A DNA stretch of 64,000 nt from Pseudolabrys sp. (GTDB taxonomy: Bacteria > Pseudomonadota > Alphaproteobacteria > Rhizobiales > Xanthobacteraceae), in assembly GCA_035651015.1 (NCBI GenBank), contig DASRGN010000034.1:6800-70799 (forward strand), given 5' to 3'. Below are positions 45,009-59,459 of this stretch, piece by piece. A program made the translations under genes and the position numbers. Under the pieces are notes generated by a model. The model ran no database searches, had not been told where the DNA came from, and saw only the letters and a program-made list of their open reading frames with translations. The number at the start of each line of letters is the position of its first letter. The first letter of the stretch is position 1.

Positions 45009-45638
45009 ATGACAGCGTCTCGCCCCGCTCCATCGTCCTCCTCACGCGGCTTCAGCCGGCGGAACTTCCTCACCTCCACGGTGGTATCGACCATGAGTGT
45101 CAGCCTCCTCGAGCGGCCGTCCGCCGCCAAACCCGCGGCCGCGACGCCATCCGACGTGCGCAGCCCTCTATCCATGACGTTGCGCATCAACGGCAGCGAC
45201 CACCACCTGGCACTCGACTCGCGCACCACGCTGCTCGATGCGCTGCGTGAGCACATCGGGCTCACCGGCAGCAAGAAAGGCTGCGATCAGGGCCAGTGCG
45301 GCGCCTGCACGGTGCTCATCGACGGGCGCCGCGTCCTCTCCTGCCTGACGCTCGCCGCGGTGGCCGAAGGCCATGAGGTCGTCACCATCGAAGGTCTCGC
45401 CAAGGCAGATGGGACGCTGCATCCGATGCAGCAGGCCTTCATCGATCACGACGCTTTCCAGTGCGGTTATTGCACGCCCGGCCAGATCATGTCGGCAGTC
45501 GGCTGCGTCAACGAAGGACACGCCGGGAGCGATGCGCAGATACGCGAATACATGAGCGGCAATCTCTGCCGCTGCGGCGCTTATGTGAACATCGTCGACG
45601 CCATCAATCAGGCGAAGACCAAGATGAAGGAGGCCTGA
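45009..45638 (+). CDS. PaoA/YagT-like 2Fe-2S subunit with Tat signal
   Basis: SRRNFL; GCDQGQCGACT; QCGYC; NLCRCG. Confidence 0.92.
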   Translation: MTASRPAPSSSSRGFSRRNFLTSTVVSTMSVSLLERPSAAKPAAATPSDVRSPLSMTLRINGSDHHLALDSRTTLLDALREHIGLTGSKKGCDQGQCGACTVLIDGRRVLSCLTLAAVAEGHEVVTIEGLAKADGTLHPMQQAFIDHDAFQCGYCTPGQIMSAVGCVNEGHAGSDAQIREYMSGNLCRCGAYVNIVDAINQAKTKMKEA

Positions 45639-45639
45639 C

Positions 45640-46668
45640 ATGCGCCCCTTCCAATACGAGCGCATCGCCGATGCGCACGCCGCCGTGCAGGCCGGCATGA
45701 CCGCAGCTTCGCCGGCGAAAGAGCCCTCGGTGCTGACCCCCGTGCAATATCTAGCCGGCGGCACCAATCTGATCGACATGATGAAGCTCGACATCATGCG
45801 GCCGCAGCGGCTCGTCGATATCAATGCGCTCGGGCAAGGGCGGCTCGGCCGCATCGAGACGAACGGGAACGGACTATGGCTCGGGGCGCTCGCGCGCATG
45901 GCGCAGGTGGCCGACCATCCCGAGGTGAAGCAGAATTATCCCGTGATCGCCGAAGCGCTCGCGCTGGCCGCCAGCGCGCAGCTGCGCAACATGGCGAGCC
46001 TCGGCGGCAACGTGCTGCAGCGAACGCGCTGCAGCTATTATCGCGATGTCTCGTACACCGAATGCAACAAGCGCAATCCAGGCTCCGGCTGTGCGGCCAT
46101 GGACGGCGTCAACCGCACGCACGCCGTGCTCGGCGTCAGCGATCAGTGTATCGCGACGTATCCCGGCGACTTCGCCCAGGCGCTGATCGCGCTCGACGCC
46201 AAGGTCGAAGTGGCGGGAACGCGCGGTTCGCGCAACATTCCTTTTGCCGAGCTGCATCGCCTGCCGGGGAGCACGCCGCAGCTCGAAACGGCGCTGGCGC
46301 CGGGTGAGCTGATTGTCGCGTTTTCGATCCCGGCGCTGCCGTTCGCCAAGCGCTCGCGCTATCTCAAAGTCCGCGATCGCGAATCCTACGAGTTCGCGCT
46401 GGCCTCCGCCGCGGTCGCTCTCGAGATGGACGGCAACACGGTGCGTCAGGCGCGTATCGCGCTCGGCGGCGTCGCCACCGTGCCGTGGCGTGCGCGCACC
46501 GCGGAAGAGCGGCTCAAAGGCGTCACGCTCGACGACGAGGCGCTCAACGGCGCAGCCGATCTCGCCTTCGCCAATGCGGCGCCACGCGCCCACAACGCCT
46601 TCAAGGTCGAGCTCGGCAAACGCACCCTGATCCGCGCGCTGCGCGAGACCGCGGCCATGGAGATCTGA
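45640..46668 (+). CDS. PaoB/YagS-like FAD subunit
   Basis: AGGTNLID, QLRNMASLGGN, four Cys (RC..C..GC..C), KVRDRESYEFA. Confidence 0.92.
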   Translation: MRPFQYERIADAHAAVQAGMTAASPAKEPSVLTPVQYLAGGTNLIDMMKLDIMRPQRLVDINALGQGRLGRIETNGNGLWLGALARMAQVADHPEVKQNYPVIAEALALAASAQLRNMASLGGNVLQRTRCSYYRDVSYTECNKRNPGSGCAAMDGVNRTHAVLGVSDQCIATYPGDFAQALIALDAKVEVAGTRGSRNIPFAELHRLPGSTPQLETALAPGELIVAFSIPALPFAKRSRYLKVRDRESYEFALASAAVALEMDGNTVRQARIALGGVATVPWRARTAEERLKGVTLDDEALNGAADLAFANAAPRAHNAFKVELGKRTLIRALRETAAMEI

Positions 46669-46669
46669 C

Positions 46670-48952
46670 ATGAACCGAGCCGCTCCCGAAGCCAAAGCCA
46701 ATATGGGCCAGCCCGTCCCGCGTTACGACGCGCGGCTCAAGGTCACCGGCGAAGCGCGCTACCCTTCCGACATGCCGGTCGGAAATCCAGCCTTTGCCAT
46801 GCTGGTGACGAGCCCGATCGCCCGAGGCCGCATCAACACGATCGATGCGAGCGAAGCGCAGGCCGTGCCCGGCGTGCTCGACATCCTCACCTACGAAAAC
46901 ACGCAGGAGCTCAAGCAGATCAAATACGCCCCCGGTGGCGGCGGTCCGAGCACCTCGATCCAGGGCTACGGACCGGAAATCGCGCATGACGGACAGATCG
47001 TGGCGCTCGTCGTCGCCGAAACCTACGAGGCGGCGCGCGAGGCGCACTACAAGCTGAAGATCGACTACGTATCCGAACAGCCGAGCGCCAGTTTCGGCGC
47101 GCCAGGTGCCTCGGAAGAAGACGCCAGCAAAGCCTCGGCGCGGGCGAAGGAGCTGCCGCAAGCCGGCGACGCCGAAGGGGCATTCTCCTCTGCCGAGGTG
47201 AAGCTCGACGTCGAATACGCCACGCCGACCCAGCATCACAATGCGATGGAGCTGTTCACCACCACCTGTGCGTGGACCGACGGGCAATTGACCGTCCACG
47301 AGCCGAGCCAGTTCATGTACGGCTTGAAGAACGCAACGGCGCAGCGGCTTGGCATCAGCCCCGACAAGGTGCGTGCCGTGAGCCGCTTCGTCGGCGGCGC
47401 CTTTGGCTCCAAAGCGCAGCAGACGCCGCGCACGGCGCTGGTTGCGCTCGCCGCCAAGCGGTTGAACCGGCCGGTGAAGCTCGTCCCCACGCGCGACCAG
47501 GGCTTCACCATCGCGACTTATCGCGCCGAGACCAAGCATCACATCCGCATGGGCGCGCAGCGTGACGGCAAGATTGCTTCCTTCATCCACGAAGGCTTCG
47601 AGGTCACCTCGCGGCCCGATCCGTACTGCGTCGCTGGCGTCGAGGACAGTGCGCGCATGTACGGCTATGGCGCGGTGAAGACGCATGTGACGATTGTGCA
47701 TGCCGACCGCAACACGCCGGGCTTCATGCGCTCGCCGCCGGTGGTGCCCTATATCTACGCGCTGGAAAGCGCCATGGACGAGCTCGCGATCAAGCTCAAC
47801 ATGGATCCGGTCGAGCTGCGCCGCGTCAACGACGCCATGCAGGACGCGACCGGCAAGCCCTGGAGTAGCCGCTCATTGATGCAGTGTTACGATGCGGCGA
47901 AGGAGGCCTTCGGCTGGTCGAGGCACAATCCGCAGCCGGGATCGATGCGCGAGGGCAACTGGTTGATCGGCTGGGGCTGCGCCAGCGCGTTCTATCCGAG
48001 CCATGTCGGCGCCGCGGCGGCGCGCGTCCGGCTTATGTCGAACGGCGAAGCGATCGTGCAAATTGCCGGCCACGATATCGGCACCGGCGCGTACACCGTG
48101 ATCGGGCAGATGGCCGCGGAACGCCTGGGCCTTCCGGTCGAAGCGGTGACCGTCGAAATTGGCGACAGCAACCTGCCGCCCTGCCCCGTTGCCGGTGGCT
48201 CGAACAACACCGCCAGTACCGGCTGCGCGGTGACGAAGGCTTGCGACGCCATCCGCGATCGCCTGGCGCGCGCCGGCGCCAACCAGGAAGCACCGCAGCG
48301 GCGACCGCCCGCCAACGTGCCGGAAACGCAAGGCCGCGGCGCCCCGGCGCCGCAGGATGCGCGACAGCTGCGCGAGACCGCCTTCAAGAAGCTCGGCGTC
48401 GGGGCCATCGAGGAATATGCCGAATTCCTCCCCGAGGGCAGCAAGCCCGACGCGATGCAGAAGCTCTATGCCGGGCAGCCGTCACTCGGCGGCGGCTCGA
48501 TGGGCAAGAAGCTGATGTATGCCATGGGCGCTGAATTCGTCGAGGTGCGCGTGCACGCGTTGACCCGTGAAATTCGCGTGCCGCGCATCATCGGCGCTTT
48601 TGCCGGCGGCCACATCGTCAATCCGCGCACCGCGCGCAGCCAGTATATCGGCGGCATGGTCTGGGGCATTGCCTCGGCGCTGCACGAAGCGACCGAGATC
48701 GACGAACGGAATGCGCGCTACATCAACGACAACTTCGCCGACTACCTGGTGCCGGTGAATGCCGACATCCAGGAGATGGAAGCAATCCTCATCTCGGAGG
48801 AGGATCACGACGTCAATCCCATCGGCGTCAAAGGCATCGGCGAGCTCGCCAATGTCGGCACCGCTGCCGCGGTCGCCAATGCGGTCTATCACGCCACCGG
48901 CGTGCGCGTGCGGCAACTGCCGATCCGCTTGGAGAAGTTGTTGACGACGTAG
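46670..48952 (+). CDS. PaoC/YagR-like molybdopterin subunit
   Basis: KVTGEARY, HHNAME, GGAFGSK, DIGTG, KGIGE. Confidence 0.9.
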   Translation: MNRAAPEAKANMGQPVPRYDARLKVTGEARYPSDMPVGNPAFAMLVTSPIARGRINTIDASEAQAVPGVLDILTYENTQELKQIKYAPGGGGPSTSIQGYGPEIAHDGQIVALVVAETYEAAREAHYKLKIDYVSEQPSASFGAPGASEEDASKASARAKELPQAGDAEGAFSSAEVKLDVEYATPTQHHNAMELFTTTCAWTDGQLTVHEPSQFMYGLKNATAQRLGISPDKVRAVSRFVGGAFGSKAQQTPRTALVALAAKRLNRPVKLVPTRDQGFTIATYRAETKHHIRMGAQRDGKIASFIHEGFEVTSRPDPYCVAGVEDSARMYGYGAVKTHVTIVHADRNTPGFMRSPPVVPYIYALESAMDELAIKLNMDPVELRRVNDAMQDATGKPWSSRSLMQCYDAAKEAFGWSRHNPQPGSMREGNWLIGWGCASAFYPSHVGAAAARVRLMSNGEAIVQIAGHDIGTGAYTVIGQMAAERLGLPVEAVTVEIGDSNLPPCPVAGGSNNTASTGCAVTKACDAIRDRLARAGANQEAPQRRPPANVPETQGRGAPAPQDARQLRETAFKKLGVGAIEEYAEFLPEGSKPDAMQKLYAGQPSLGGGSMGKKLMYAMGAEFVEVRVHALTREIRVPRIIGAFAGGHIVNPRTARSQYIGGMVWGIASALHEATEIDERNARYINDNFADYLVPVNADIQEMEAILISEEDHDVNPIGVKGIGELANVGTAAAVANAVYHATGVRVRQLPIRLEKLLTT

Positions 48953-48954
48953 GC

Positions 48955-49575
48955 TTATGCGGCGGCCAGCTCACCGAGCGCCCGCACGCAGCCCTTGAGG
49001 TCGCGAACGAACGCGCGGTACTGCGCCGCCTTGTCGGCCTCATCGTCGATGCGCAAGAGATACGACGGGTGGATGGTCGCAATCATGCTGCCGCCGTCTG
49101 CAAGCGGAATCACCGTGCCGCGGATTTTTGAGATCGTCAGCGGCCGCCCGGAGATGCTGCGCACCGCGGTCGCGCCAAGCGCGACAATGAGCTGTGGCCT
49201 GACGATCGTGCGCTCGAGGTCGACCCACCAATGGCAGCGCTCGATCTCGTAAGCATTCGGGCGCTTGTGCAGGCGACGCTTGCCGCGCGGCTCGAACTTG
49301 AAGTGTTTCACCGCATTCGTGACGAAAACCTTCTTGCGGTCGATGCCGGCTTCTTCAATGGCCTGATCCAGCATGCGCCCGGCCGGCCCGACGAACGGCT
49401 GCCCCGCGATGTCTTCCTTATCGCCCGGCTGCTCGCCGACCATCATGATCGGCGCCCGTGTGGGCCCTTCGCCTGGCACAACCTGCGTCGCGTGCTTGTA
49501 AAGCGGGCAGCGCGTGCAGCTAGCCTCGGCGTCGCGCAGCGCTTTCAGGGTCCTGATGGCGGGCAGCTCGGCCAT
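48955..49575 (-). CDS. udgX: UdgX-type uracil-DNA binding protein
   Basis: CTRC (4Fe-4S), GEQPG, GKRRLHK R-loop, HPSYLLR. Confidence 0.88.
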   Translation of the reverse strand: MAELPAIRTLKALRDAEASCTRCPLYKHATQVVPGEGPTRAPIMMVGEQPGDKEDIAGQPFVGPAGRMLDQAIEEAGIDRKKVFVTNAVKHFKFEPRGKRRLHKRPNAYEIERCHWWVDLERTIVRPQLIVALGATAVRSISGRPLTISKIRGTVIPLADGGSMIATIHPSYLLRIDDEADKAAQYRAFVRDLKGCVRALGELAAA

Positions 49576-49582
49576 GTTGGTC

Positions 49583-49608
49583 AACCGCCGCCGCCAAGCG
49601 GGAGTTCC
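49583..49608 (-). promoter_or_regulatory. EcfG-type promoter GGAAC-N17-GGTT
   Basis: The -10 element ends 7 nt before the udgX ATG; no RBS is present. Confidence 0.6.
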
Positions 49609-49610
49609 CG

Positions 49611-51497
49611 CTACAAATCCTGCTCGATCCAGCTGCGCTGCACGTCTTCGCACCAGTTGCCGACGTTCCACTCGCCCCAGGCGCCGAGACCGCCGAGCTC
49701 GTGCGCCCCGCAATAGACCGGCACGTGGACGACCGAGAGGCCGTCATGCGCGTGCGCGGCTTTCAGCGCGGCCCCCAAGCTCGCCGCATCGAGCCCGCCA
49801 TTCAGTGCGTGAACGCCGGACGCGGCGGAGGCCAGGCGCACATAATCGACCGCGACACGGTCATTGGTGCGGAAGTCCTGCCCATATTGCGCGAGCTGCA
49901 GTCCAGTGATCGCCGCCATGCGGCGGTTGTCGAAGATCACGATCATGCCGCGAACGCCGTGCTCGACCGCATCGATCAGGATCTGCGGATTCATCATGAA
50001 GGAACCGTCGCCGCAGAAGGCGATGCCATAGCGCGGCTTGTCGGCTAGTGCTGAGGCGAGCAGCGCGCTCGGCGCGAAGCCCATGTAAGAGGCGCCGGCT
50101 TCGGTGAACGTGTCGCCCGTGCGGTCGTCCTCGACGATCTGGAAGCCGTTGGCCTGCACGTCGCCGGCGTCGAAGAACTTCGCCGCGCCGATCGATTTGG
50201 CAAAGTCGGTGACGATCTTGATCGCCGCCGGCTGCGGCAGCACCGCCTTGTCCCAGGCGGCATCGGCCAAGGGACCGGAGTCGAAGCGTGCACGCTTATA
50301 GGTGGCCCATTCCGCCTTCTTGGCGGCACAGGCGTCGAGCCAGGCACGCTTGTTACTGCTCGCCTTCGCCGCCTCAAGCTTTTGCGCCAGCCGGTCAGCG
50401 ACGGCGCCGATATCGCCTATGAGCGCCAACGTCTTGTTGTAGTGCAAGGCGTCGGCGAGATCACCGTTGATATTGATCACCGCTTGCGCCGACTTGTAGC
50501 CGATGCCGGAGCAGTCGGCCTGACACACGGCGCGCGAGCCCGCGACGACGAGGAGGTCGGCCTCGGCCATCGCGAAATTGCCGCTGATCGAACCCTTGGA
50601 GCCACCGACATGCATGTTTTGCGGATGCGCGTCGGGAAGCACACCGGTCGAACCGGGTGAGAGCACGACCGCGGCGCCCGCGGCTTCGGCGAGCCGACGC
50701 AGCGCCGCGTCATGTCCGCGTGTGCCGCCGCCGGCCTTGATGGCGACTTTCGCTGCTTTGGCGATCAGCGCCGCCGCCTGGTCGATTGCGGTATCGTCTG
50801 CCGGCGCGAGCTTCGGCAATTGCGGGCGCTCGGGCAGCGCCGCGACGTTCACCGTCAGGCGCGCCGGCTGGGTGTTGAGCGGCAACAGCAGATAAAACGG
50901 GCCGGCGCGATAGGGATGGTTGACGCAGAGCGCGCCGCGCCGTAGCGCGTCACGCACCGCTTCCGGCGTATGCAGCACATAGGACTGGCCGAGCGTCGCG
51001 GTCATGCGGCCGAACAGGCCCTGCTCCTCCTTCGGCACCTGCTGCATGTTGTAGCCTTCGCCGAAGGTCGTCTCGTCGCCATAGATGTGATAGACGCCGA
51101 CACCGTTCGAGGCGCTGGCCAGCGATCCAGCGAAGGCCTGCATCGCGCCAGGCCCGATCGAGGTCACCACTGCGGAGACTTCGCCATATTCCCAGCGCAG
51201 CGCGGTCGCCGCGTGCGCCATCTCCACTTCGTTGCGGCAATTGATGGTGCGGGTGACGCCTTCCGCTTCATAGATGCGCAGCACCTCGCCGAGATCGGTC
51301 GAGCCGTGGCCGAAGATGGCGAAATATTTGCGCACGCCCTGCTTGAGCAAGCCAAGCACCAGCGCTTCGGACAGCGTCGTCTCGATCAGCTTCGGGAAAC
51401 TTCCGTGAGACAGCGCCGCCGCAAGACCGCCAGCCTCGCGGATGGCGCGCGCGCGTGCGTGCATCGCGGCATGAGGATCGGTCTCACGATCGAGCAT
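49611..51497 (-). CDS. ThDP-dependent enzyme, IolD-like
   Basis: AIFGHG, RNEVEMAHAA, TSIGPGA, GDGSFMM...FDN ThDP motif. Confidence 0.82.
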   Translation of the reverse strand: MLDRETDPHAAMHARARAIREAGGLAAALSHGSFPKLIETTLSEALVLGLLKQGVRKYFAIFGHGSTDLGEVLRIYEAEGVTRTINCRNEVEMAHAATALRWEYGEVSAVVTSIGPGAMQAFAGSLASASNGVGVYHIYGDETTFGEGYNMQQVPKEEQGLFGRMTATLGQSYVLHTPEAVRDALRRGALCVNHPYRAGPFYLLLPLNTQPARLTVNVAALPERPQLPKLAPADDTAIDQAAALIAKAAKVAIKAGGGTRGHDAALRRLAEAAGAAVVLSPGSTGVLPDAHPQNMHVGGSKGSISGNFAMAEADLLVVAGSRAVCQADCSGIGYKSAQAVININGDLADALHYNKTLALIGDIGAVADRLAQKLEAAKASSNKRAWLDACAAKKAEWATYKRARFDSGPLADAAWDKAVLPQPAAIKIVTDFAKSIGAAKFFDAGDVQANGFQIVEDDRTGDTFTEAGASYMGFAPSALLASALADKPRYGIAFCGDGSFMMNPQILIDAVEHGVRGMIVIFDNRRMAAITGLQLAQYGQDFRTNDRVAVDYVRLASAASGVHALNGGLDAASLGAALKAAHAHDGLSVVHVPVYCGAHELGGLGAWGEWNVGNWCEDVQRSWIEQDL

Positions 51498-51507
51498 TGG
51501 AGTAGCC

Positions 51508-52491
51508 CTAGTTCGTCTTCGCTGCCGCCTCTTTGAGGATCGGCCCCCAGCGCTTGATCTCGGTGGTGAGCAGATGCTCGAGATTGGCCGGCCCACGCTC
51601 CTCCTTGGGCGGCACCGAGCCGCCAAGCGTGATCAGACGTTGCTGCACGGCGGGATCATCGAGGGTCTTGTCGAGCGCTTCGGCGAGCTTGTCGACAGCC
51701 TGTTTCGGCGTGCCCGCTGGCGCGAAGATCGCACTCCAGATGCTCATCTGGTAGTCCGGTGCGCCTGCAGTGATCGCCGGCGGCACGCCGGCCAACGCCG
51801 GCACCGGCGCCGGCGCCGAGACGGCATAGGCTTTGACGGTCCCGCTCTTTACGGCCGGGGCGACACTGACGATCTGCTCGCAGAAGAAATCGACATGTCC
51901 GCCGATCACATCGTTGAGCGCCGGGCCGGTGCCACGATAGGCGACGAGCGCCGGCTTCAATCCGAGCTTGGCGGTGAACAGAAGGCACGCCATGTGCGAG
52001 GACGAGCCGATGCCGCCATGAGCCTGCTTCACCTTATCGCCGTTCTCCTTGAGATAGGCGATGAACTCCTTGAGATCCTTGGCCGGGAAGTCCTTGCGCG
52101 CGATGATCGCCGCCGGCGCGTGCGCGGTCAGCCCGATCGGCGTGAAATCCTTGGTCGAGTCGTATTTCAGGTTCGGGTAGAAGGCCGGCGCGGCAACATG
52201 CGAGCCCATGCTGGCGGCGAGCAAAGTGTAGCCGTCGGCATCAGCCGCCGCGGCACGCGCAGTACCGATGGTGCCGCCGGCACCGCCGACATTCTCGATG
52301 ATGACCGATTGCCCCAGCACCCGCCCCATGCCGTCGGCCATGATGCGCGCGACAACATCACTCGGCCCGCCGGCAGGGTAAGGCACGATCATGGTGATGG
52401 TGCGCGACGGGTAGTTTTGTGCTCCGGCCGATGCGGCCATGCACAGCAATGCGGCGCCCGCAACCACCGCTTTCCGAACCCCACGCATCAC
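51508..52491 (-). CDS. Bug/TctC substrate-binding protein
   Basis: VPYPAGGPSD, ENVGGAGG, YRGTGPAL. Confidence 0.93.
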   Translation of the reverse strand: MMRGVRKAVVAGAALLCMAASAGAQNYPSRTITMIVPYPAGGPSDVVARIMADGMGRVLGQSVIIENVGGAGGTIGTARAAAADADGYTLLAASMGSHVAAPAFYPNLKYDSTKDFTPIGLTAHAPAAIIARKDFPAKDLKEFIAYLKENGDKVKQAHGGIGSSSHMACLLFTAKLGLKPALVAYRGTGPALNDVIGGHVDFFCEQIVSVAPAVKSGTVKAYAVSAPAPVPALAGVPPAITAGAPDYQMSIWSAIFAPAGTPKQAVDKLAEALDKTLDDPAVQQRLITLGGSVPPKEERGPANLEHLLTTEIKRWGPILKEAAAKTN

Positions 52492-52528
52492 ATCGTCTCC
52501 CTATTCCCAGTGTTCTTGTCCGTCGTCT

Positions 52529-53395
52529 TCAAAGCTTCAATTGTCCGCCGAGCAACCCCGATTTGATCAGCGAGGCAAACAGCGCATCATCATGGGTCAC
52601 CAGAATCGCAAGCTCGCGCTCATTGCGGCTCGTAGCATTGAGCCAGCGCAGCTGGCCCATGATCCGCGGCACATCCTCTTTCACCCAGGGCGCAGCCTTG
52701 CCCTTGATGCGGCGGATGTTCTCCATGTTCCAGGCGGAGTCGACGCTGTGCAGCACCTCGCGGCCGGAGGCGAGTGCGATGAACACCATTTGCGAATCGA
52801 CGCTGTGGCCGGGCGCTTTGATGAGCACGATACCTGGCGCGACCGGATAATATTGCCGGTAGTCGAGCAGCACGAAGCGATTCACGACCTCAGACGCGAG
52901 CTTGAGATGCGGCCGGTGCGGTGTCTCCACCATGCAGCGCGCCATCTCGCTGCTGACGATGGTTTTCCCCGCCAGCTCGGCGAAATTCGCCGCAGTGAGC
53001 ACGCCGCCGACGTGATCGGCATGATGGTGCGTGAGCACGATCAGCCGCGCAGCGTCGAGCGCGCGCTTGAGCTTCGCGAATTCCTCCGGGAAATACGGCT
53101 CCTGCCCGCCGAAGGATTCGTGGGTGGTCTGATCGAAGCCCGAATCAATCATCACCGTGCAGTCGGGATAGACCACCTGATAGGCAGTGCGCGGCATGGT
53201 CACCGGCGTGTCGTCGCCACCCTCGATGACGAAGCGTTGCGGACGGATGCTCGCGGCGATGCGCGCGCCATTCACGGCAATCGGCAGCGCGCCGGGAAGC
53301 ACACGCGCCAGCTTGCGGACGATGGGCAGATCGACGTCGAACGGGATTTCCGCCGCCCAAGCCTCCGTCCTGCTCGCTGCGCTCACTGCACTCAT
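52529..53395 (-). CDS. Metallo-beta-lactamase fold hydrolase
   Basis: THHHADH, APGH, VDSAW, VTHD. Confidence 0.85.
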   Translation of the reverse strand: MSAVSAASRTEAWAAEIPFDVDLPIVRKLARVLPGALPIAVNGARIAASIRPQRFVIEGGDDTPVTMPRTAYQVVYPDCTVMIDSGFDQTTHESFGGQEPYFPEEFAKLKRALDAARLIVLTHHHADHVGGVLTAANFAELAGKTIVSSEMARCMVETPHRPHLKLASEVVNRFVLLDYRQYYPVAPGIVLIKAPGHSVDSQMVFIALASGREVLHSVDSAWNMENIRRIKGKAAPWVKEDVPRIMGQLRWLNATSRNERELAILVTHDDALFASLIKSGLLGGQLKL

Positions 53396-53404
53396 GCGCG
53401 CATC

Positions 53405-54415
53405 CTACTCCGCCGCCTGCAGTGCAGCGCGGCGCTCTTTGTCGCGGATCGCCATCAGCACCTTCTCCGGCGTCGCCGGAAGCGAGGTGATGCGCACACC
53501 GACGGCATCATAAATCGCGTTCATGATCGCCGGAATGGTCGGCACCATGGCCGGCTCGCCGATGCCTTTGACGCCGAGTGGTCCGATCGGATCCGGATCC
53601 TCGACGATGATCGAGTTGATCTGCGGCACATCGAGCGACGTGGGCAGGATGTATTTGGCAAAGCCCGATGTGCTGGTGCGGCCCTGCTCGAGCTTGTAGT
53701 CCTCCATCAGGCCTTGGCCGAGTGCCTGCACGATACCGCCCTCGATCTGGCCTTCGACGCCCTTGGGGTTGACGGCACGGCCGACGTCGTGCGCGGCCCA
53801 GATGCCGAGCACCTGCACTTCGCCGGTGACCGTGTCGACCTCGACCTCGGCGACCTGGCAGCCGAACACATAGGCCTGCCAAGGCTTGCCGGCACCGTCG
53901 ACGGGATCGAGCCCGCCGGTATCGGTGCCGAAGGATGCGGAGCCAACCGGCACCAACCCGCGCGACTTCGCGAGCTTGATCGCCTCGTCCATGGTGATGC
54001 GATGATTGCTGTCGTCGGCCCACACCTCGCCATTGGCGGTGTGGATGCGCTCGGCCGCGACATCCCACTGACCGGCGAGAAAATCGACCAGCTTGCCGCG
54101 CGCCTCGCGGCAAGCGAGCGCGACCACATTGCCGATCATGTAGGTCTGTCGAGTCGCGCCGGCATGCGCGGCCTCCGGCGACCGTGCGGTGTCGTTGTCG
54201 CCGATCACGATGTCTTGCGGACGGATGCCGAGCTCCTGCGCGGCGATCTGCGCCAGCACGGTGAGGATGCCTTCGCCGATCTCGGTGACGCCGGTGACGA
54301 TCTTGGCGGTGCCGCCGTCGTCGAGCTCGGCCCAGGCGCCGGCGCGATCGACCGTCGCGGTCCGGGCGATCCCGTACCAGCACGCCGCCATGCCCCTGCC
54401 GCGCTTGCGAGCCAT
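53405..54415 (-). CDS. Molybdenum hydroxylase, C-terminal Mo-binding (medium) subunit
   Basis: KRGRGMAACWYG start, EIGEG, GQIEGG, KGIGEP catalytic Glu; own GGAG RBS. Confidence 0.88.
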   Translation of the reverse strand: MARKRGRGMAACWYGIARTATVDRAGAWAELDDGGTAKIVTGVTEIGEGILTVLAQIAAQELGIRPQDIVIGDNDTARSPEAAHAGATRQTYMIGNVVALACREARGKLVDFLAGQWDVAAERIHTANGEVWADDSNHRITMDEAIKLAKSRGLVPVGSASFGTDTGGLDPVDGAGKPWQAYVFGCQVAEVEVDTVTGEVQVLGIWAAHDVGRAVNPKGVEGQIEGGIVQALGQGLMEDYKLEQGRTSTSGFAKYILPTSLDVPQINSIIVEDPDPIGPLGVKGIGEPAMVPTIPAIMNAIYDAVGVRITSLPATPEKVLMAIRDKERRAALQAAE

Positions 54416-54418
54416 CGC

Positions 54419-56296
54419 CTACTCCGCCGCCTCTTGCCGGTCGGGGTTGTTGAACCGTGCGCCCAGCGCGCAGGGCGGACGCATGCCGTTGCGATTGAGA
54501 TCGCGCCGCGTGGCGCCGCGCGAGGTCGGTGCGCCGGCTTCCCAGCCGGAGCCCTCCTCTGCCGCGTCGAGCACACGCGTGAGGCTCACCGAATTGAGCG
54601 TCTGCTTGGTGTGCGTCCTCGCGCCGTCGCGCATGGCATTGATACGACGGATCGCGAATGGATCGAGCCCGAGCCGCTCGGCGCAGATGTCGAGATGCGT
54701 CTCCGTGGCGAATTGCGTTTGCAGCGCGCCGAAGCTGCGGAAAGCGCCGGACGGCGTGTTGTTGGTGTAGATGCCGTAGGTGTCCACCTGCACGTTCGGG
54801 ATGGCATAGGGCCCGGCGCCGAGGATCGCGGCCTTGCGCATCACGCCCTCGGTCGACAGCCCATAGGCGCCGCCGTCGCAGATCATCGTCATGTGCGAGG
54901 CGAGGATGCGCCCTTCCCGCGTCAGCCCCATGCGCAAGGTGGTGCGCGAGGGATGCCGCTTCGCCGTGGAGACGATCGATTCCTCCCGGGTGAAGACCAG
55001 CCGCACCGGCCGCCGCGTCTGCATCGCCAGCAGCGCCAGCATGCCCTGGTAGATCATGTCCTCCTTGCCGCCGAAGCCGCCGCCCACCGGGCTCATGATG
55101 AAGCGCACCTTGCTGATCGGCTTGGCAATGATGCGCGCCAGCATGTGGCGGTGATGCGTGATGTTCTGGCTCGGCGACACCACCGTGACCACGCCGTCGG
55201 CATCGACGTAGGAAAGCCCAGCCTCGGGCTCTAGATAAGCGTGCTCGATCGGCTGCGTCTCATAGGTCTCCTCGACCACCAGATCGGATTCGGCAAAGCC
55301 CTTGCGCACATCGCCGACGCGGATCGGGATGTGCTTGGTGAGGTTGTCCGGCGCGTAGTCGTGCAGCACCGGCGCGCCGGGCTGCCTCGCCGCCTCGGGA
55401 TTAAACACCGCGGGCAGCGGCTCGTAGATCACTTTGATCGCATCACAGGCGCGCCGCGCGGTCAACGGATCTTCCGCGGCAACCGCCGCGATTGCCTCGC
55501 CGATATAGCGCACCTTGTCGCGCGCCATGATCGGCTGATCGTTGACGAAGACACCGAAGCCATCGACGCCGGGCACATCGGCGCTGGTGATCACGCCCTC
55601 GACACCGTCCATCGCGGCAGCCACTGAGGTGTCGATCGAGACGATGCGCGCATGCGGATGCGGCGAGCGCAGCACCTGCACATGCAGCATGCCGGGCATC
55701 AGCATGTCGCCGGCATATTTGAGCGCGCCGGAGACCTTCGAGGGCGCATCGATGCGCCGCACATTGGCGCCGATGAAGTGGCCTTCGTCGGCTTCCGCTT
55801 CGGCGAGCGCGGTCGCCGGCAGTCGGCCGTTCTGCACATCGCGAGCGAGCTCGACCGCGTCGAAGATCTTCTGATAACCGGTGCAGCGGCAGATGTTGCC
55901 GCCGAGCCGTTCCTTGATCTCCTCGCGATCGGCGAACGGATTGGCGCGCAGCGCCGCGGTTGCCGCCATCACCATGCCGGGAATGCAGTAGCCGCATTGG
56001 CTGGCGCCGGCCTTGTGGAACGCCTGCTGCAGCACGCTGAGCTCGCCGGTCTTGGCCAGCGCTTCGACCGTCTCGATGCTCGCGCCCTGCGCCTTGGCGA
56101 CCGGCATCAGGCAAGACTTGTGCAGCACACCGTCCACAAAGACCGAGCAAGTGCCACACTCGCCGGCACCGCAGCCTTCCTTGTTGCCGGTGAGATTGAG
56201 GTCGTCGCGGATAAAATCGAGCAGCCGCTGATACGGTTTGGCATTGCGCTTGACCTTGCGGCCGTTGACGGTGGCCTCGATGTGGAGGTCAGGCAT
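54419..56296 (-). CDS. Molybdenum hydroxylase, fused 2Fe-2S plus N-terminal Mo-binding subunit
   Basis: GCGAGECGTC, QCGYC, NICRCTGY, then KVSGALKY, SPSQN, GGGFGGKED, AFRSFG. Confidence 0.9.
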   Translation of the reverse strand: MPDLHIEATVNGRKVKRNAKPYQRLLDFIRDDLNLTGNKEGCGAGECGTCSVFVDGVLHKSCLMPVAKAQGASIETVEALAKTGELSVLQQAFHKAGASQCGYCIPGMVMAATAALRANPFADREEIKERLGGNICRCTGYQKIFDAVELARDVQNGRLPATALAEAEADEGHFIGANVRRIDAPSKVSGALKYAGDMLMPGMLHVQVLRSPHPHARIVSIDTSVAAAMDGVEGVITSADVPGVDGFGVFVNDQPIMARDKVRYIGEAIAAVAAEDPLTARRACDAIKVIYEPLPAVFNPEAARQPGAPVLHDYAPDNLTKHIPIRVGDVRKGFAESDLVVEETYETQPIEHAYLEPEAGLSYVDADGVVTVVSPSQNITHHRHMLARIIAKPISKVRFIMSPVGGGFGGKEDMIYQGMLALLAMQTRRPVRLVFTREESIVSTAKRHPSRTTLRMGLTREGRILASHMTMICDGGAYGLSTEGVMRKAAILGAGPYAIPNVQVDTYGIYTNNTPSGAFRSFGALQTQFATETHLDICAERLGLDPFAIRRINAMRDGARTHTKQTLNSVSLTRVLDAAEEGSGWEAGAPTSRGATRRDLNRNGMRPPCALGARFNNPDRQEAAE

Positions 56297-57209
56297 AGGC
56301 CGCCTCCAGCGCGGGCGCGAGCGCTTGCGGATCGGCGCCGGCGCGGCGCGCGGCATTGAAGAGCCCGCGCACGACAAAGCCGCGCACCACCTCGCGGCGA
56401 TACTCCTGCCGCGTGCGTGAGGCGACGCGCCCGATCGGCATCTCAGCGGCGCGTTCCAGCAAATCCACGGACAGCACGGCGCCGCGCAGAGCGCCCTCGA
56501 CCTCGGCGAGCCGCTGCGGCGTCGCGGCAACGCCGGCGAGCGCCAGCCGCGCATCTTCGATGACGCGACCAGCCGCATCGAGCCGCAGCAGCGCCGCCAG
56601 GCAAACGGTGGAAATGACCAGCGAGCGGCGGTGCCCGACCTTCTCGAAGCTACCGCCGTAACCCGGCAGCGCGTCGCATTCAATGGCGATGAGCAGCTCG
56701 CCCGGCTCGAGCGCCGTCTTGCCGGCACCGCGGACGAAGGCGGCGAGAGGCATGCGCCGGCGGACGATCTGGCCTTGCTGTCGCACAGCAAGTTCGATCT
56801 GCGCATCATGTGCCAGCAGGCACGGCGTGCCGTCGGCGGCCGGCGAGGCATTGACGAGATTGCCGCCGATCGTCGCCTGCTCGCGGATCTGATCATCGGC
56901 GAACCACACCGCGCAACGCGGCATGTCAGGCATGGCGCGCTGCAACGCCGGGTCGTCGAGAAAGCGCTGGATCGGCGTCGCCGCCCCGAGGCGGACGCGT
57001 TTCTCCTCGACGCGCCGCTCGCGCAGCTCGGGAATGCGGGTCACGTCGATCAGAGCGGGGATATGCACGTCGCCGGCGCGGCCTTGTCGCGCCCAGGGCA
57101 GCGTGTCGGTCGCGCCGGCGACGATCCGATAGGCGCCGCGATGGGCGTCCATCGCGTCGAACGCCTCATCCAGCGAGCGCGGCGTCAGGTAGTCGTCGCA
57201 GGTGAGCAC
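56289..57209 (-). CDS. Molybdenum hydroxylase FAD subunit
   Basis: VAGATD, QIREQATIGGNLVNASPAADG; GTG start. Confidence 0.9.
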   Translation of the reverse strand: MLTCDDYLTPRSLDEAFDAMDAHRGAYRIVAGATDTLPWARQGRAGDVHIPALIDVTRIPELRERRVEEKRVRLGAATPIQRFLDDPALQRAMPDMPRCAVWFADDQIREQATIGGNLVNASPAADGTPCLLAHDAQIELAVRQQGQIVRRRMPLAAFVRGAGKTALEPGELLIAIECDALPGYGGSFEKVGHRRSLVISTVCLAALLRLDAAGRVIEDARLALAGVAATPQRLAEVEGALRGAVLSVDLLERAAEMPIGRVASRTRQEYRREVVRGFVVRGLFNAARRAGADPQALAPALEAAYA

Positions 57210-57257
57210 GTCTGCATTTCCTTGTTGATCCCGGCGATCAGCGAGGATCAGGAGGAA

Positions 57258-58421
57258 TTACTCCGCAGCTTCCTTCTGCACGGCATCCATCTTGCGCTTC
57301 ACCACCACCTTGATCGCGTCTTCGATGCGGTCTTTGGCGTAGCGGATCGCTGTCGGCAGATCCTCCAGCGGGAAGGTGTGGGTATGGATCTTGGTCGCGT
57401 CGAAGCGTTTCTGCCGCATGAAGGCTTCGGCGCGATGCGTGGCGCTCTTGCCTTCGCCGCGGATGCCGTAAACGTAGATGTTGTTGCGCACGATATGCGC
57501 GATATCGACCGCGGCATCCTCGTGCGGGAACGCGGCGAGGCAGACCCGGCCGCCGCGATTGACCATGCGCACGGCTTCATTGACGGCATTCGCCGCCGCG
57601 GAGCATTCGACCACGTAGTCGACGCCCTTGCCGCCATTGAGCCGGCGCACGGCCTCGACCGCATCTTCCTTGCGCACATTGACGACGTGGTCGGCGCCGA
57701 GCTCCTGACCGATCTTCAACCGGTTGTCGCGCGTGCCGGTGAGGATGACCGGCTGCGCGCCGAGCGCCTTGGCGACCGCGACCGCCATCAGGCCGATCGG
57801 ACCCGGACCGGTGACCGCGACGCTCTCACCGGCAACGAGGCCGCCGAGCTCGGTGAGGCCGTACATCGCCGTGCCGGCGGTGACGACCAGCGTACCCTCC
57901 TCATCCGACATGTCGTCCTGGATGGCGACCAGGGTGTTGATGTTGTTGACCTGGTACTCGCAGAAGCCGCCGTCGGTGGTGAAGCCGTTGGCGCGGTGGC
58001 CTTTGTCCACGTCGCCGTAGTTGAGCCCATAGTTGTGGCACGAGGTGTACATACCTTCGCGGCAGCGTTTGCACTGCCCGCAGCCGGCATGGATCTCCAC
58101 CGCGATGCGCTGGCCGATCTTGTACTCGTCGACGCCGGGACCGAGCGCGACCACCGTGCCCATATATTCATGCCCAGGCGTGAAGTTCTTGTTATAGGGC
58201 GCGCCGCCTTGGATGATCGCCGGCGGACCGTGATAGATGATCTCGAGGTCGGTGGCGCAGATCGCGACCGCGTCGATGCGCACCAGCACTTCCGCGCGCT
58301 TGGGTACCGGCACCGGCTTGTCCTTGAGGATGAGCTGACCAGGATCGCCGAGCACCCAGGCCTTCATCGTATCCGGGACCGGAAACTCCTTGCTGGTCTT
58401 CACACCGGCGGGCGCGTACAT
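57258..58421 (-). CDS. Zn-dependent (MDR) polyol/threonine dehydrogenase-like protein
   Basis: CATD, GHEY, CGQCKRCREGMYTSC, GPGPIG. Confidence 0.92.
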   Translation of the reverse strand: MYAPAGVKTSKEFPVPDTMKAWVLGDPGQLILKDKPVPVPKRAEVLVRIDAVAICATDLEIIYHGPPAIIQGGAPYNKNFTPGHEYMGTVVALGPGVDEYKIGQRIAVEIHAGCGQCKRCREGMYTSCHNYGLNYGDVDKGHRANGFTTDGGFCEYQVNNINTLVAIQDDMSDEEGTLVVTAGTAMYGLTELGGLVAGESVAVTGPGPIGLMAVAVAKALGAQPVILTGTRDNRLKIGQELGADHVVNVRKEDAVEAVRRLNGGKGVDYVVECSAAANAVNEAVRMVNRGGRVCLAAFPHEDAAVDIAHIVRNNIYVYGIRGEGKSATHRAEAFMRQKRFDATKIHTHTFPLEDLPTAIRYAKDRIEDAIKVVVKRKMDAVQKEAAE

Positions 58422-58462
58422 CACTGTCTCCCAATCGTCATTCGCTCCGGACTACTCCGGCT

Positions 58463-59305
58463 TTATTCCGCGGCTTGTGGCCGTTCGATCTGCGCGCCGA
58501 GCTCGGCGCTGAGCCCGCGCGCGGCAGCGACCACTTCCGTGCACATCAGCTCGATGTGCTCATCGCTTGCGCGCATGCTCGGGGTCGAGGCGCTGATCGC
58601 GCCGACCACGGTGCCGGCCTGGTCGCGGATCGCGGCACCGATGCAGATCACGCCCGGCTGGAATTCCTCGCGATCGAAGGCAAAGCCCTTGCGGCGGACG
58701 AGGCGCAGATCCTCGATCAGCTCGGCAAAATCGGTGATGGTCTGCGGCGTGAACCGCGTCATGCCGCCGGAGAGGATGCGGCGCATCTCGTCCTCGGGCA
58801 GCCAGGCGAGCATGGCCTTGCCGATCGCGGTGGCATGTGCCGCCTCGGTGCGGCCGGCGCCGCCGGTGGTGACGCGCACGGCGTGCCGCGACTCCCGTGT
58901 CAGCAGCGTAACGATCGCCTCGCCCTGCAATGCGGCGAGCAGCACGGTTTCGCCGGTGGTGCGGCTGATGCGGTCGATGAACGGCTGCGCCCGGCGCGGC
59001 AGGTCGACCTGCAGGCAGGCATGGCCGAGATAGAGAATGCGCGCCCCCAGCGCGTAAAGCCTGCGGCCGGGGACCTTGGCGGCGAAGCCGCGCATAATCA
59101 ACGTCGCCAGAAGATGATGGCAGGTCGAGATGTTGAGCCCGGTGCGGTTCGACAGCTCGGTCAGCGTCGCCTCGCCGCCGCATTCGGCGATGGTCTCGAG
59201 CAGGAACAGCGCGCGATCGACAGACTGAATGCTGTGCCGCTCCGCGCCGGTGCGCGCCTTCGGTTTGATGCTCGCAACCGGCTTGGTCTCAGCCTTGGCG
59301 TCCAT
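58463..59305 (-). CDS. IclR family regulator
   Basis: IQSVDRAL, TLTELSNRTGLNISTCHHLL, HATAIGKA, FDREE. Confidence 0.95.
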   Translation of the reverse strand: MDAKAETKPVASIKPKARTGAERHSIQSVDRALFLLETIAECGGEATLTELSNRTGLNISTCHHLLATLIMRGFAAKVPGRRLYALGARILYLGHACLQVDLPRRAQPFIDRISRTTGETVLLAALQGEAIVTLLTRESRHAVRVTTGGAGRTEAAHATAIGKAMLAWLPEDEMRRILSGGMTRFTPQTITDFAELIEDLRLVRRKGFAFDREEFQPGVICIGAAIRDQAGTVVGAISASTPSMRASDEHIELMCTEVVAAARGLSAELGAQIERPQAAE

Positions 59306-59459
59306 GACAGGCCCCTCAATGGTCGGCCGAAGCAAATGGGTCCGAAGGGTTGAAGTCAAGCAATTTTCGAAATGGCGAATTGGACTTTCATAACACGAAA
59401 ATGGTGCGAAAGGACCCTCTCCTCGACGAGCGCCTAACCAATTGATGGATTGTCAGATT

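Follow-up and report, generated by a model that had tools for sequence, protein, structure and literature searches.

A conserved, horizontally mobile operon that joins a split molybdenum hydroxylase to a distinct family of thiamine diphosphate enzymes in Pseudolabrys

The window analysed here is a 64,000-nucleotide stretch of a Pseudolabrys genome (Xanthobacteraceae; contig DASRGN010000034.1, positions 6,800 to 70,799), and its subject is a cluster of eight genes which open reading frame listing and family scans place, without exception, on the minus strand, running from 59359 to 49611 (Table 1). Headed by an IclR-family regulator, the cluster continues with a zinc-dependent dehydrogenase (ZnDH), a molybdenum (Mo) hydroxylase spread over three genes, a metallo-beta-lactamase (MBL)-fold hydrolase, a periplasmic binding protein of the TctC/Bug type and, last, a thiamine diphosphate (ThDP) enzyme. 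An earlier note on this DNA had described eight co-oriented, tightly spaced genes led by an IclR regulator, and all eight were recovered. At the junctions, neighbouring genes overlap by up to 8 nt or are separated by up to 48 nt, and the interval between the IclR and ZnDH genes reaches 95 nt if the later ZnDH start is taken. A sigma-70-like site lies upstream of the IclR gene, while a scan of the window found no terminator-like site after the Mo C-half, MBL or Bug genes. The cluster is self-contained, as it is flanked by a UdgX gene downstream and by a SIS-domain gene and polysaccharide genes upstream.

Table 1. The eight genes and neighbouring features, with positions in the window (FeS, iron-sulphur).
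Feature	Position	Strand	Details
Sigma-70-like site	59485-59457		
IclR-family regulator, first in operon	58463-59359	-	probable ATG 59305; Pfam HTH_IclR and IclR_C
ZnDH, medium-chain dehydrogenase/reductase of the polyol/threonine-dehydrogenase type	57258-58424	-	alternative ATG 58367; Pfam ADH_N and ADH_zinc_N
FAD subunit of Mo hydroxylase, CoxM/XdhB type	56289-57209	-	Pfam FAD_binding_5 and CO_deh_flav_C
[2Fe-2S] domains fused to Mo N-half (FeS/MoN)	54419-56296	-	Pfam Fer2, Fer2_2, Ald_Xan_dh_C, MoCoBD_1
Mo C-half (MoC), NdhM-like	53405-54415	-	Pfam MoCoBD_2
MBL-fold hydrolase, accessory	52529-53395	-	Pfam Lactamase_B
TctC/Bug periplasmic binding protein	51508-52491	-	signal peptide; Pfam TctC
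ThDP enzyme	49611-51497	-	three Pfam TPP_enzyme domains (N, M, C)
ThDP residues 605-620	~49635-49685		motif G-x-W-N-V-G-N-W-C
UdgX-family uracil-DNA-binding protein	48955-49590	-	directly 3' of the ThDP gene
Second Mo hydroxylase	45009-48952	+	converges on UdgX
Second Mo hydroxylase, FeS subunit	45009-45638	+	Tat-type RRNFL signal
Second Mo hydroxylase, FAD subunit	45640-46668	+	
Second Mo hydroxylase, large subunit	46670-48952	+	unsplit

The arrangement is conserved far beyond chance. Searched with the ThDP protein, species-representative genomes yielded 517 relatives, and the best 80 of these, with identities of 78-85%, all came from Xanthobacteraceae (Pseudolabrys, Undibacter, Pseudorhodoplanes and others). 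Seventy-one of the 80, together with two fetched loci from the family (L111 and L112), make up 73 species-level loci in which the Mo C-half and ThDP genes are co-oriented and 89-5314 bp apart. The IclR, ZnDH, FAD and FeS/MoN genes are also present on the fetched piece in 54 of the 73. Because the ThDP gene was the entry point of this survey, each of the two proteins, Mo C-half and ThDP, was then searched for on its own in a sample of 200 genomes of the family. Both were found in exactly the same 21, which span 13 of 62 genera and include two of the four genomes from the genus of the window itself. Beyond the family the two genes are seldom met. Among 400 genomes of the class, the ThDP gene was found in three, at 62-66% identity and without the Mo enzyme, and the closest relatives of the Mo enzyme reach 42-45% identity; no relative of the Mo enzyme was found in 320 genomes of the phylum.

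A further copy lies in another bacterial order. Plasmid pS26_248 of the cultured marine bacterium Phaeobacter piscinae S26 (Rhodobacterales; locus L125, NZ_CP080276.1, 131635-150217) carries the series IclR-ZnDH-FAD-FeS/MoN-MoC-TctC-TctB-TctA-ThDP-ALDH-IlvD/Edd, where ALDH denotes an aldehyde dehydrogenase, with the same FeS fusion and the same split of the Mo subunit as in the window. Identities to the window proteins are 82, 57, 70, 75 and 66% (ZnDH 82, FeS/MoN 70, MoC 75, ThDP 66), and 40% for IclR. The co-linear loci of the family, the matching presence and absence, and the plasmid copy lead us to conclude that these genes travel together, and that they constitute an as yet uncharacterised catabolic operon, conserved and moved by horizontal transfer. 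The proposal that one operon is conserved across genomes is thus borne out by 73 co-linear loci, and its genes keep company even outside their own order. The first condition that the earlier note had named as refuting its scheme, a lack of co-occurrence in other genomes, does not hold.

Not all eight genes are equally fixed. Between the Mo C-half and ThDP genes, or directly after the latter, the 73 loci carry a varying set of further genes: Bug/TctC in 53, MBL in 27, a RutD/PcaD-like alpha/beta hydrolase in 13, a Gfo/Idh/MocA dehydrogenase in 11 and an AP_endonuc_2 TIM barrel in 10, with DctA replacing Bug in three, and ALDH and IlvD/Edd following ThDP in four and three, respectively. The ThDP gene directly follows the Mo C-half (within ~100 bp) in two loci. 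Because these optional genes differ from locus to locus, we take the core of the operon to be the IclR, ZnDH and ThDP genes and the three genes of the Mo enzyme. A component for carboxylate uptake, TctC in the window and TctCBA or DctA in relatives, is a conserved part as well. The MBL protein, to which the earlier note had assigned the opening of a lactone or lactam, is accessory and dispensable, given its frequency above and its absence from the Phaeobacter cluster. Its NCBIfam matches, to acyl-homoserine lactone lactonases and to 4-pyridoxolactonase, are weak. Together with the alpha/beta hydrolase, the Gfo/Idh/MocA protein and the TIM barrel, it may provide optional entry or lactone-opening steps.

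Two neighbours on the 3' side can be set apart from the operon. UdgX occupies the same position in 14 of the 73 related loci, and is a frequent rather than a fixed neighbour. The second Mo hydroxylase, unrelated to the first, looks periplasmic and resembles aldehyde oxidoreductases of the PaoABC type; a link between it and the cluster was rejected, as it adjoins the cluster in only two of ~80 loci.

The ThDP gene belongs, in addition, to a conserved unit, not visible to the earlier note, whose last two members are gone from the copy in the window. On annotated plasmids from cultured Alphaproteobacteria, orthologous genes for an ALDH resembling succinic semialdehyde dehydrogenase (SSADH) and for a dehydratase of the IlvD/Edd family invariably come after the ThDP gene. 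Orthologues of this trunk occur in Phaeobacter, Salipiger, Labrenzia and Sinorhizobium, and in the family loci L046, L111 and L112, with identities among clusters of 54-70% for ALDH and 67-75% for IlvD/Edd; the latter scores above the cut-off of the PRK06131 subfamily and is L-arabinonate-dehydratase-like (676-686 bits). The trunk ThDP-ALDH-IlvD/Edd is fixed, and three interchangeable modules stand upstream of it. The first consists of a sugar ABC importer and a Gfo/Idh/MocA dehydrogenase, as in Labrenzia (a CUT1 sugar ABC importer with IclR-Gfo/Idh/MocA-ThDP-ALDH-IlvD). The second combines a TRAP importer, a beta-hydroxyacid dehydrogenase and a TIM-barrel isomerase, as in Salipiger (IclR-ThDP-beta-hydroxyacid dehydrogenase-GlcG-like-TIM barrel-TRAP-ALDH-IlvD). 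The third, of which Phaeobacter is an example, couples a tripartite tricarboxylate transporter (TTT) or DctA to ZnDH and the Mo hydroxylase. Sinorhizobium mexicanum carries ThDP-ALDH-IlvD. More distant members of the ThDP family adjoin Gfo/Idh/MocA, IclR and sugar ABC importer genes, while for others the neighbour is a split transketolase accompanied by RpiB, an ALDH, or an MFS carrier next to a TIM barrel. With at least 62-66% identity and an IclR regulator, the ThDP protein of the window falls within the trunk family, and we conclude that its lineage lost ALDH and IlvD from the operon; the basal clusters of the family (L046, L111 and L112) keep them.

The ThDP protein shows the hallmarks of the superfamily of acetolactate synthase (ALS), pyruvate oxidase and IolD, namely three domains, a cofactor-activating Glu and a GDG...N motif for ThDP and Mg. 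Within this superfamily it forms a family of its own, and the name IolD, which JGI annotations give to its close homologues, is a routine misannotation. Its score against the IolD model TIGR04377 is 153.3 bits, compared with a cut-off of 715 bits. This is still its best NCBIfam match, and the genome encodes five further ThDP proteins that score higher against the same model, leaving the operon protein sixth. Comparison by phmmer with eight true IolDs from the same order gave 63-107 bits. In a maximum-likelihood tree of 27 proteins, including these eight and six ALS-like paralogues, the ThDP family, the true IolDs and the paralogues form three clades with 99-100% support each, joined by very long branches, and the stem leading to the ThDP family measures 2.55. 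These scores and the separate, deep clade make 'IolD-like', as the protein had been called, a weak label. The accompanying observation that the window lacks iolE, iolB and iolC was confirmed; a true iolD was not found there either. The result extends to the 99.99% complete genome, in which iolD, iolE and iolB were not found and iolC matched below its cut-off only.

An exhaustive search of 1.8 billion representatives placed about five full-length clusters at 50% identity in the ThDP family before similarity falls to ~30%, and the motifs NEVEMAH, GDGSFMMN and FDNRRM are near-invariant in ~83 orthologues. Against solved structures, the profile of the family ranks acetohydroxyacid synthase (AHAS), JanthE and pyruvate oxidase above cyclohexane-1,2-dione hydrolase (CDH). 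An AlphaFold2 model (pLDDT 83), on the other hand, gives its best TM-score with CDH (0.77, rmsd 3.8 Å). In Foldseek searches with this model, AHAS, glyoxylate carboligase and CDH all reach a probability of 1.00, while E-values favour AHAS and glyoxylate carboligase; the fold search does not separate a CDH-like from an AHAS-like enzyme. The motif G-x-W-N-V-G-N-W-C near the C-terminus is invariant across the ThDP family down to 38% identity. It lies in a region modelled with low confidence, which may be an active-site lid, and could serve as a family signature.

The Mo hydroxylase has the features of the xanthine dehydrogenase (XDH) family (Fer2 and Fer2_2, the hammerhead domain, MoCoBD_1 and MoCoBD_2, a FAD_binding_5 subunit and the catalytic Glu). 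Among solved structures, its N-half comes closest to NdhL of the nicotinate dehydrogenase (NDH) of Eubacterium barkeri (3HRD_A, 4.5e-99), which covers residues 176-584, and the C-half aligns end to end with 3HRD_B (5.9e-74; residues 2-329 of 3HRD_B over 3-327 of the C-half). The aldehyde oxidoreductase of D. gigas comes second among solved relatives. NDH and the operon enzyme share the residue at which the Mo subunit is split, and the split is kept in relatives; it is real, recurring in L111 and L112 (4-nt overlap, a different junction) and in the annotation of the Phaeobacter plasmid. With FAD, FeS-MoN and MoC on three genes, the architecture combines the split of NDH with the FeS fusion of the Desulfovibrio type.

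Several active-site residues bear on the substrate. The N-half carries GGGFGGKED, where XDH has ...KET and NDH has ...KLD, and its Glu falls at the position of bovine E802. In the motif VMRKA (IMERA in XDH, VITRA in NDH), a Lys stands at the position of bovine R880, where NDH and XDH have Arg, and an Arg precedes it by one residue. AFRSFG, which reads AFRGFG in XDH and NDH, keeps the conserved Arg and Phe. In the C-half, all matches retain the equivalent of Tyr13M (WYG) as well as the catalytic Glu (GEPAM), and the active-site motifs of the enzyme are near-invariant in ~70 orthologues. In NDH, Tyr13M has been modelled to act on the ring nitrogen (PMC5746545). Taken together, the residues appear to favour a polar heterocyclic substrate, although a hydroxylated or carboxylated aldehyde, or a lactol, would also be compatible. 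The Mo enzyme had been suggested to oxidise either a precursor or the aldehyde product of the pathway; it is the former option which these residues, of heterocycle-hydroxylase type, favour.

The nearest relatives of the Mo enzyme outside the family, at 42-45% identity, vary in their organisation. In L109 (G129:C131), the large subunit is unsplit, the FeS and FAD genes are separate, and the neighbours are hydantoinase/oxoprolinase, SDR and IclR genes. L110 (G081:C57) resembles NDH in keeping its four genes separate, and its neighbours are HMGL-like and M24/creatinase-like genes. The Phaeobacter cluster is followed by genes for a PntAB transhydrogenase, a BLUF protein and a Mo-cofactor chaperone of the XdhC family; the cluster of the window has no XdhC gene.

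The remaining core proteins are less specific in their matches. The regulator, whose orthologue stands 5' of the cluster in 54 of the 73 loci, is best matched in NCBIfam by BhcR, at 184 bits compared with a cut-off of 350. ZnDH scores 216 bits against Tdh and 196 bits against IolM, both below cut-off. It is nonetheless the most conserved gene of the cluster, at 84-90% identity across the family loci, and its catalytic and structural Zn motifs are intact and near-invariant in 62 orthologues. In another alphaproteobacterial family (L123; G240:C2, 7505-14302), an IclR (45%) and ZnDH (71-72%) pair lies beside genes for an MFS carrier, an unknown 293-residue protein, an AMP-forming CoA ligase and a divergent RraA-like aldolase; found in this different context, the pair may be a module of its own. 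As for transport, TctC is the only TTT component in the operon of the window and six TctA genes lie elsewhere in the genome, while L032 and Phaeobacter have a full TctCBA inside the cluster. The transporters of the Mo-linked and TRAP versions (TTT, DctA and TRAP) are all carboxylate importers.

Our preferred reading, to which we assign a probability of roughly 45%, is that the eight genes may form a single catabolic operon under IclR control, directed at a hydroxylated, anionic substrate. The acid would be taken up via a TTT system. ZnDH would oxidise a secondary alcohol to a ketone, and the Mo enzyme would introduce oxygen either into a C-H bond adjoining a heteroatom of the ring or at the carbon of an aldehyde or lactol, the two steps together yielding a 2-oxo or vicinal-dicarbonyl acid. 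The ThDP enzyme would then cut the C-C bond beside the carbonyl and release an aldehyde, either by decarboxylating a 2-oxo acid or by dione hydrolysis of the IolD/CDH type. In complete versions of the operon, ALDH would convert this aldehyde to an acid, and IlvD/Edd would dehydrate the latter to a 2-oxo acid of central metabolism. The fixed order of ThDP, ALDH and IlvD, together with the SSADH-like character of the ALDH, fits an aldehyde with a distal carboxylate, which either the ring opening of a dione or the decarboxylation of a 2-oxo-dicarboxylate would produce. In relation to the earlier interpretation, the operon, the co-occurrence of its genes and the separation from true IolD stand, while the IolD-like label and the necessity of the MBL hydrolase do not.

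Several points weigh against this reading. Firstly, every chemical step in it is read from family membership and gene context. Secondly, the closest characterised relative of the Mo enzyme acts on an aromatic N-heterocycle, which is a poor fit with a trunk resembling those of sugar-acid pathways. Thirdly, ALDH and IlvD/Edd are not found directly 3' of the ThDP gene in the window, where UdgX stands instead. The best ALDH relative in the genome is only ~50% identical, and the IlvD orthologue on contig C14, at 79% identity to the IlvD of L112, has no related neighbours and may therefore be a housekeeping paralogue. Finally, the ThDP tree does not resolve a single from a multiple origin of the Mo-linked copies.

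The route itself could take any of three forms. In one, which is possible though on balance unlikely, ZnDH and the Mo enzyme, as an aldehyde or lactol oxidoreductase, would turn an imported aldonate or uronate into a dicarboxylic or keto sugar acid. The MBL or alpha/beta hydrolases would act as lactonases, IlvD/Edd would form a 2-keto-3-deoxy acid, the ThDP enzyme would act as a 2-oxo-acid decarboxylase, and ALDH would oxidise the resulting semialdehyde. The trunk and its accessory families are typical of oxidative pathways for sugars and sugar acids (Gfo/Idh/MocA, lactonase-like hydrolases, IlvD/Edd, and ALDH resembling SSADH or alpha-ketoglutaric semialdehyde dehydrogenase), the transporters fit in kind, and the D. 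gigas enzyme ranks second among solved relatives. A Zn alcohol dehydrogenase with a Mo aldehyde oxidoreductase is, moreover, a classical pairing. What such a route leaves unexplained is the Mo active site, which has kept a Glu where bovine E802 stands, along with the Tyr whose modelled role in NDH concerns the ring nitrogen, as well as the occurrence of the 42-45% relatives beside hydantoinase/oxoprolinase or M24/creatinase-type genes.

The strict form of the cyclic-dione scheme put forward in the earlier note is doubtful. Here ZnDH, with or without the Mo enzyme, would make a cyclic 1,2-dione from a cyclitol, diol or hydroxy-heterocycle, and a ThDP enzyme of the IolD/CDH type would open the ring to an omega-oxo acid. 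This product would next be oxidised, a task for ALDH where the cluster is complete, and IlvD/Edd would dehydrate it. That no NCBIfam model matches the ThDP protein better than IolD, that true IolDs score slightly above the ALS-like paralogues of the genome itself, and that CDH gives the top TM-score are all consistent with this scheme, as are the trunk order and the SSADH-like ALDH, which suit an aldehyde-acid product, and the optional partners, which belong to the same families as IolG, IolE/IolO and IolM. The IolD score is, however, far under its cut-off and the clade is separate and deep, and AHAS, JanthE and pyruvate oxidase outrank CDH by profile. Furthermore, most Gfo-linked clusters have one dehydrogenase and no dehydratase with which to form a dione, and carboxylate importers are ill-suited to neutral cyclitols.

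A further form is the oxygenase-independent opening of an N- or O-heterocyclic hydroxy-acid, which we consider improbable. The Mo enzyme would place an oxo group beside the heteroatom, ZnDH would oxidise the CHOH group next to it and so produce an alpha-keto-lactam or -lactone, and the ThDP enzyme would cleave between the two carbonyls; we know of no ThDP enzyme that cleaves the C-C bond between the carbonyls of such a compound.

It is very improbable that the Mo and ZnDH genes and the ThDP gene serve two unrelated functions and are merely adjacent. The ThDP family does occur without the Mo enzyme in other lineages, and in many loci transporter or accessory genes separate the ThDP gene from the Mo part. 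Against this stand the matching presence and absence across 200 genomes of the family despite a patchy distribution, the two loci in which ThDP follows the Mo C-half by ~100 bp, the same combination on the plasmid of another order, and the tight junctions, free of terminator-like sites at the three positions given above. Finally, a canonical myo-inositol pathway in which the ThDP protein is the true IolD and the remaining enzymes are encoded elsewhere, a possibility that the earlier note had itself raised and that is echoed by the JGI names, is rejected with next to no reservation on the score of 153 against 715 bits, the clade apart from eight true IolDs, and a genome without IolD, IolE, IolB or an IolC above cut-off.

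Whichever route applies, the preferred reading of one catabolic operon has consequences beyond this locus. The ThDP family is widespread, is routinely misannotated as IolD and has no known reaction, and a Mo hydroxylase of unusual architecture is one of the interchangeable entries to its trunk. Since the genes are carried by cultured organisms, namely Phaeobacter piscinae S26 (pS26_248), Labrenzia and Salipiger, the reaction is directly testable. The abundance of Pseudolabrys-type bacteria in soils suggests that the substrate is probably a common organic acid of soil or algal origin. Once this substrate is known, annotations would be corrected by the thousand, and a new type of C-C cleavage might come to light.

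Full-text searches of the literature turned up no description of this gene combination, in line with the earlier note, which did not recognise it from any described pathway, and comparison must therefore be made part by part. NDH (E. barkeri NdhF/S/L/M, PDB 3HRD) shares with the operon the split point, the separate FAD subunit, the Tyr13M equivalent and the catalytic Glu. It differs in having four genes rather than three, the FeS domains of the operon being fused to the L-like half, and in two residues: the operon has Glu for Leu in GGGFGGK(E/L)D, and an Arg-preceded Lys where NDH and XDH have Arg. The families of nicotinate fermentation (6-hydroxynicotinate reductase, enamidase and others) are missing among the cluster genes, and the host of the operon is an aerobic soil alphaproteobacterium. 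IolD and the iol pathway offer a three-domain ThDP fold, the best curated family match and optional neighbours of the IolG, IolE/IolO and IolM families, and an aldehyde-forming C-C cleavage is the likely reaction of the operon enzyme as well. Unlike IolD, the operon protein scores at one fifth of the cut-off, sits in a separate clade and has no iolE, iolB, iolC or iolJ to be found with it; its typical neighbours are instead a Mo hydroxylase, a Zn dehydrogenase, an SSADH-like ALDH and IlvD/Edd.

The trunk has its own parallels. In the cyanobacterial variant of the TCA cycle, 2-oxoglutarate decarboxylase and SSADH likewise form a succession of an ALS-like ThDP enzyme and an SSADH-like ALDH, and sugar-acid pathways of the Weimberg type share with the trunk an IlvD/Edd dehydratase, a Gfo/Idh/MocA dehydrogenase and lactonase-like hydrolases as partners. 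To our knowledge both operate without a Mo hydroxylase, and the likeness seen is one of family. CDH (Azoarcus, PDB 2PGN/4D5E) is only ~20% identical to the ThDP protein, ranks by profile below AHAS, JanthE, pyruvate oxidase and HACL, and belongs to an alicyclic-diol context that the operon lacks. It nevertheless gives the best superposition on the AlphaFold2 model, and provides a precedent for the ThDP-dependent opening of a cyclic dione.

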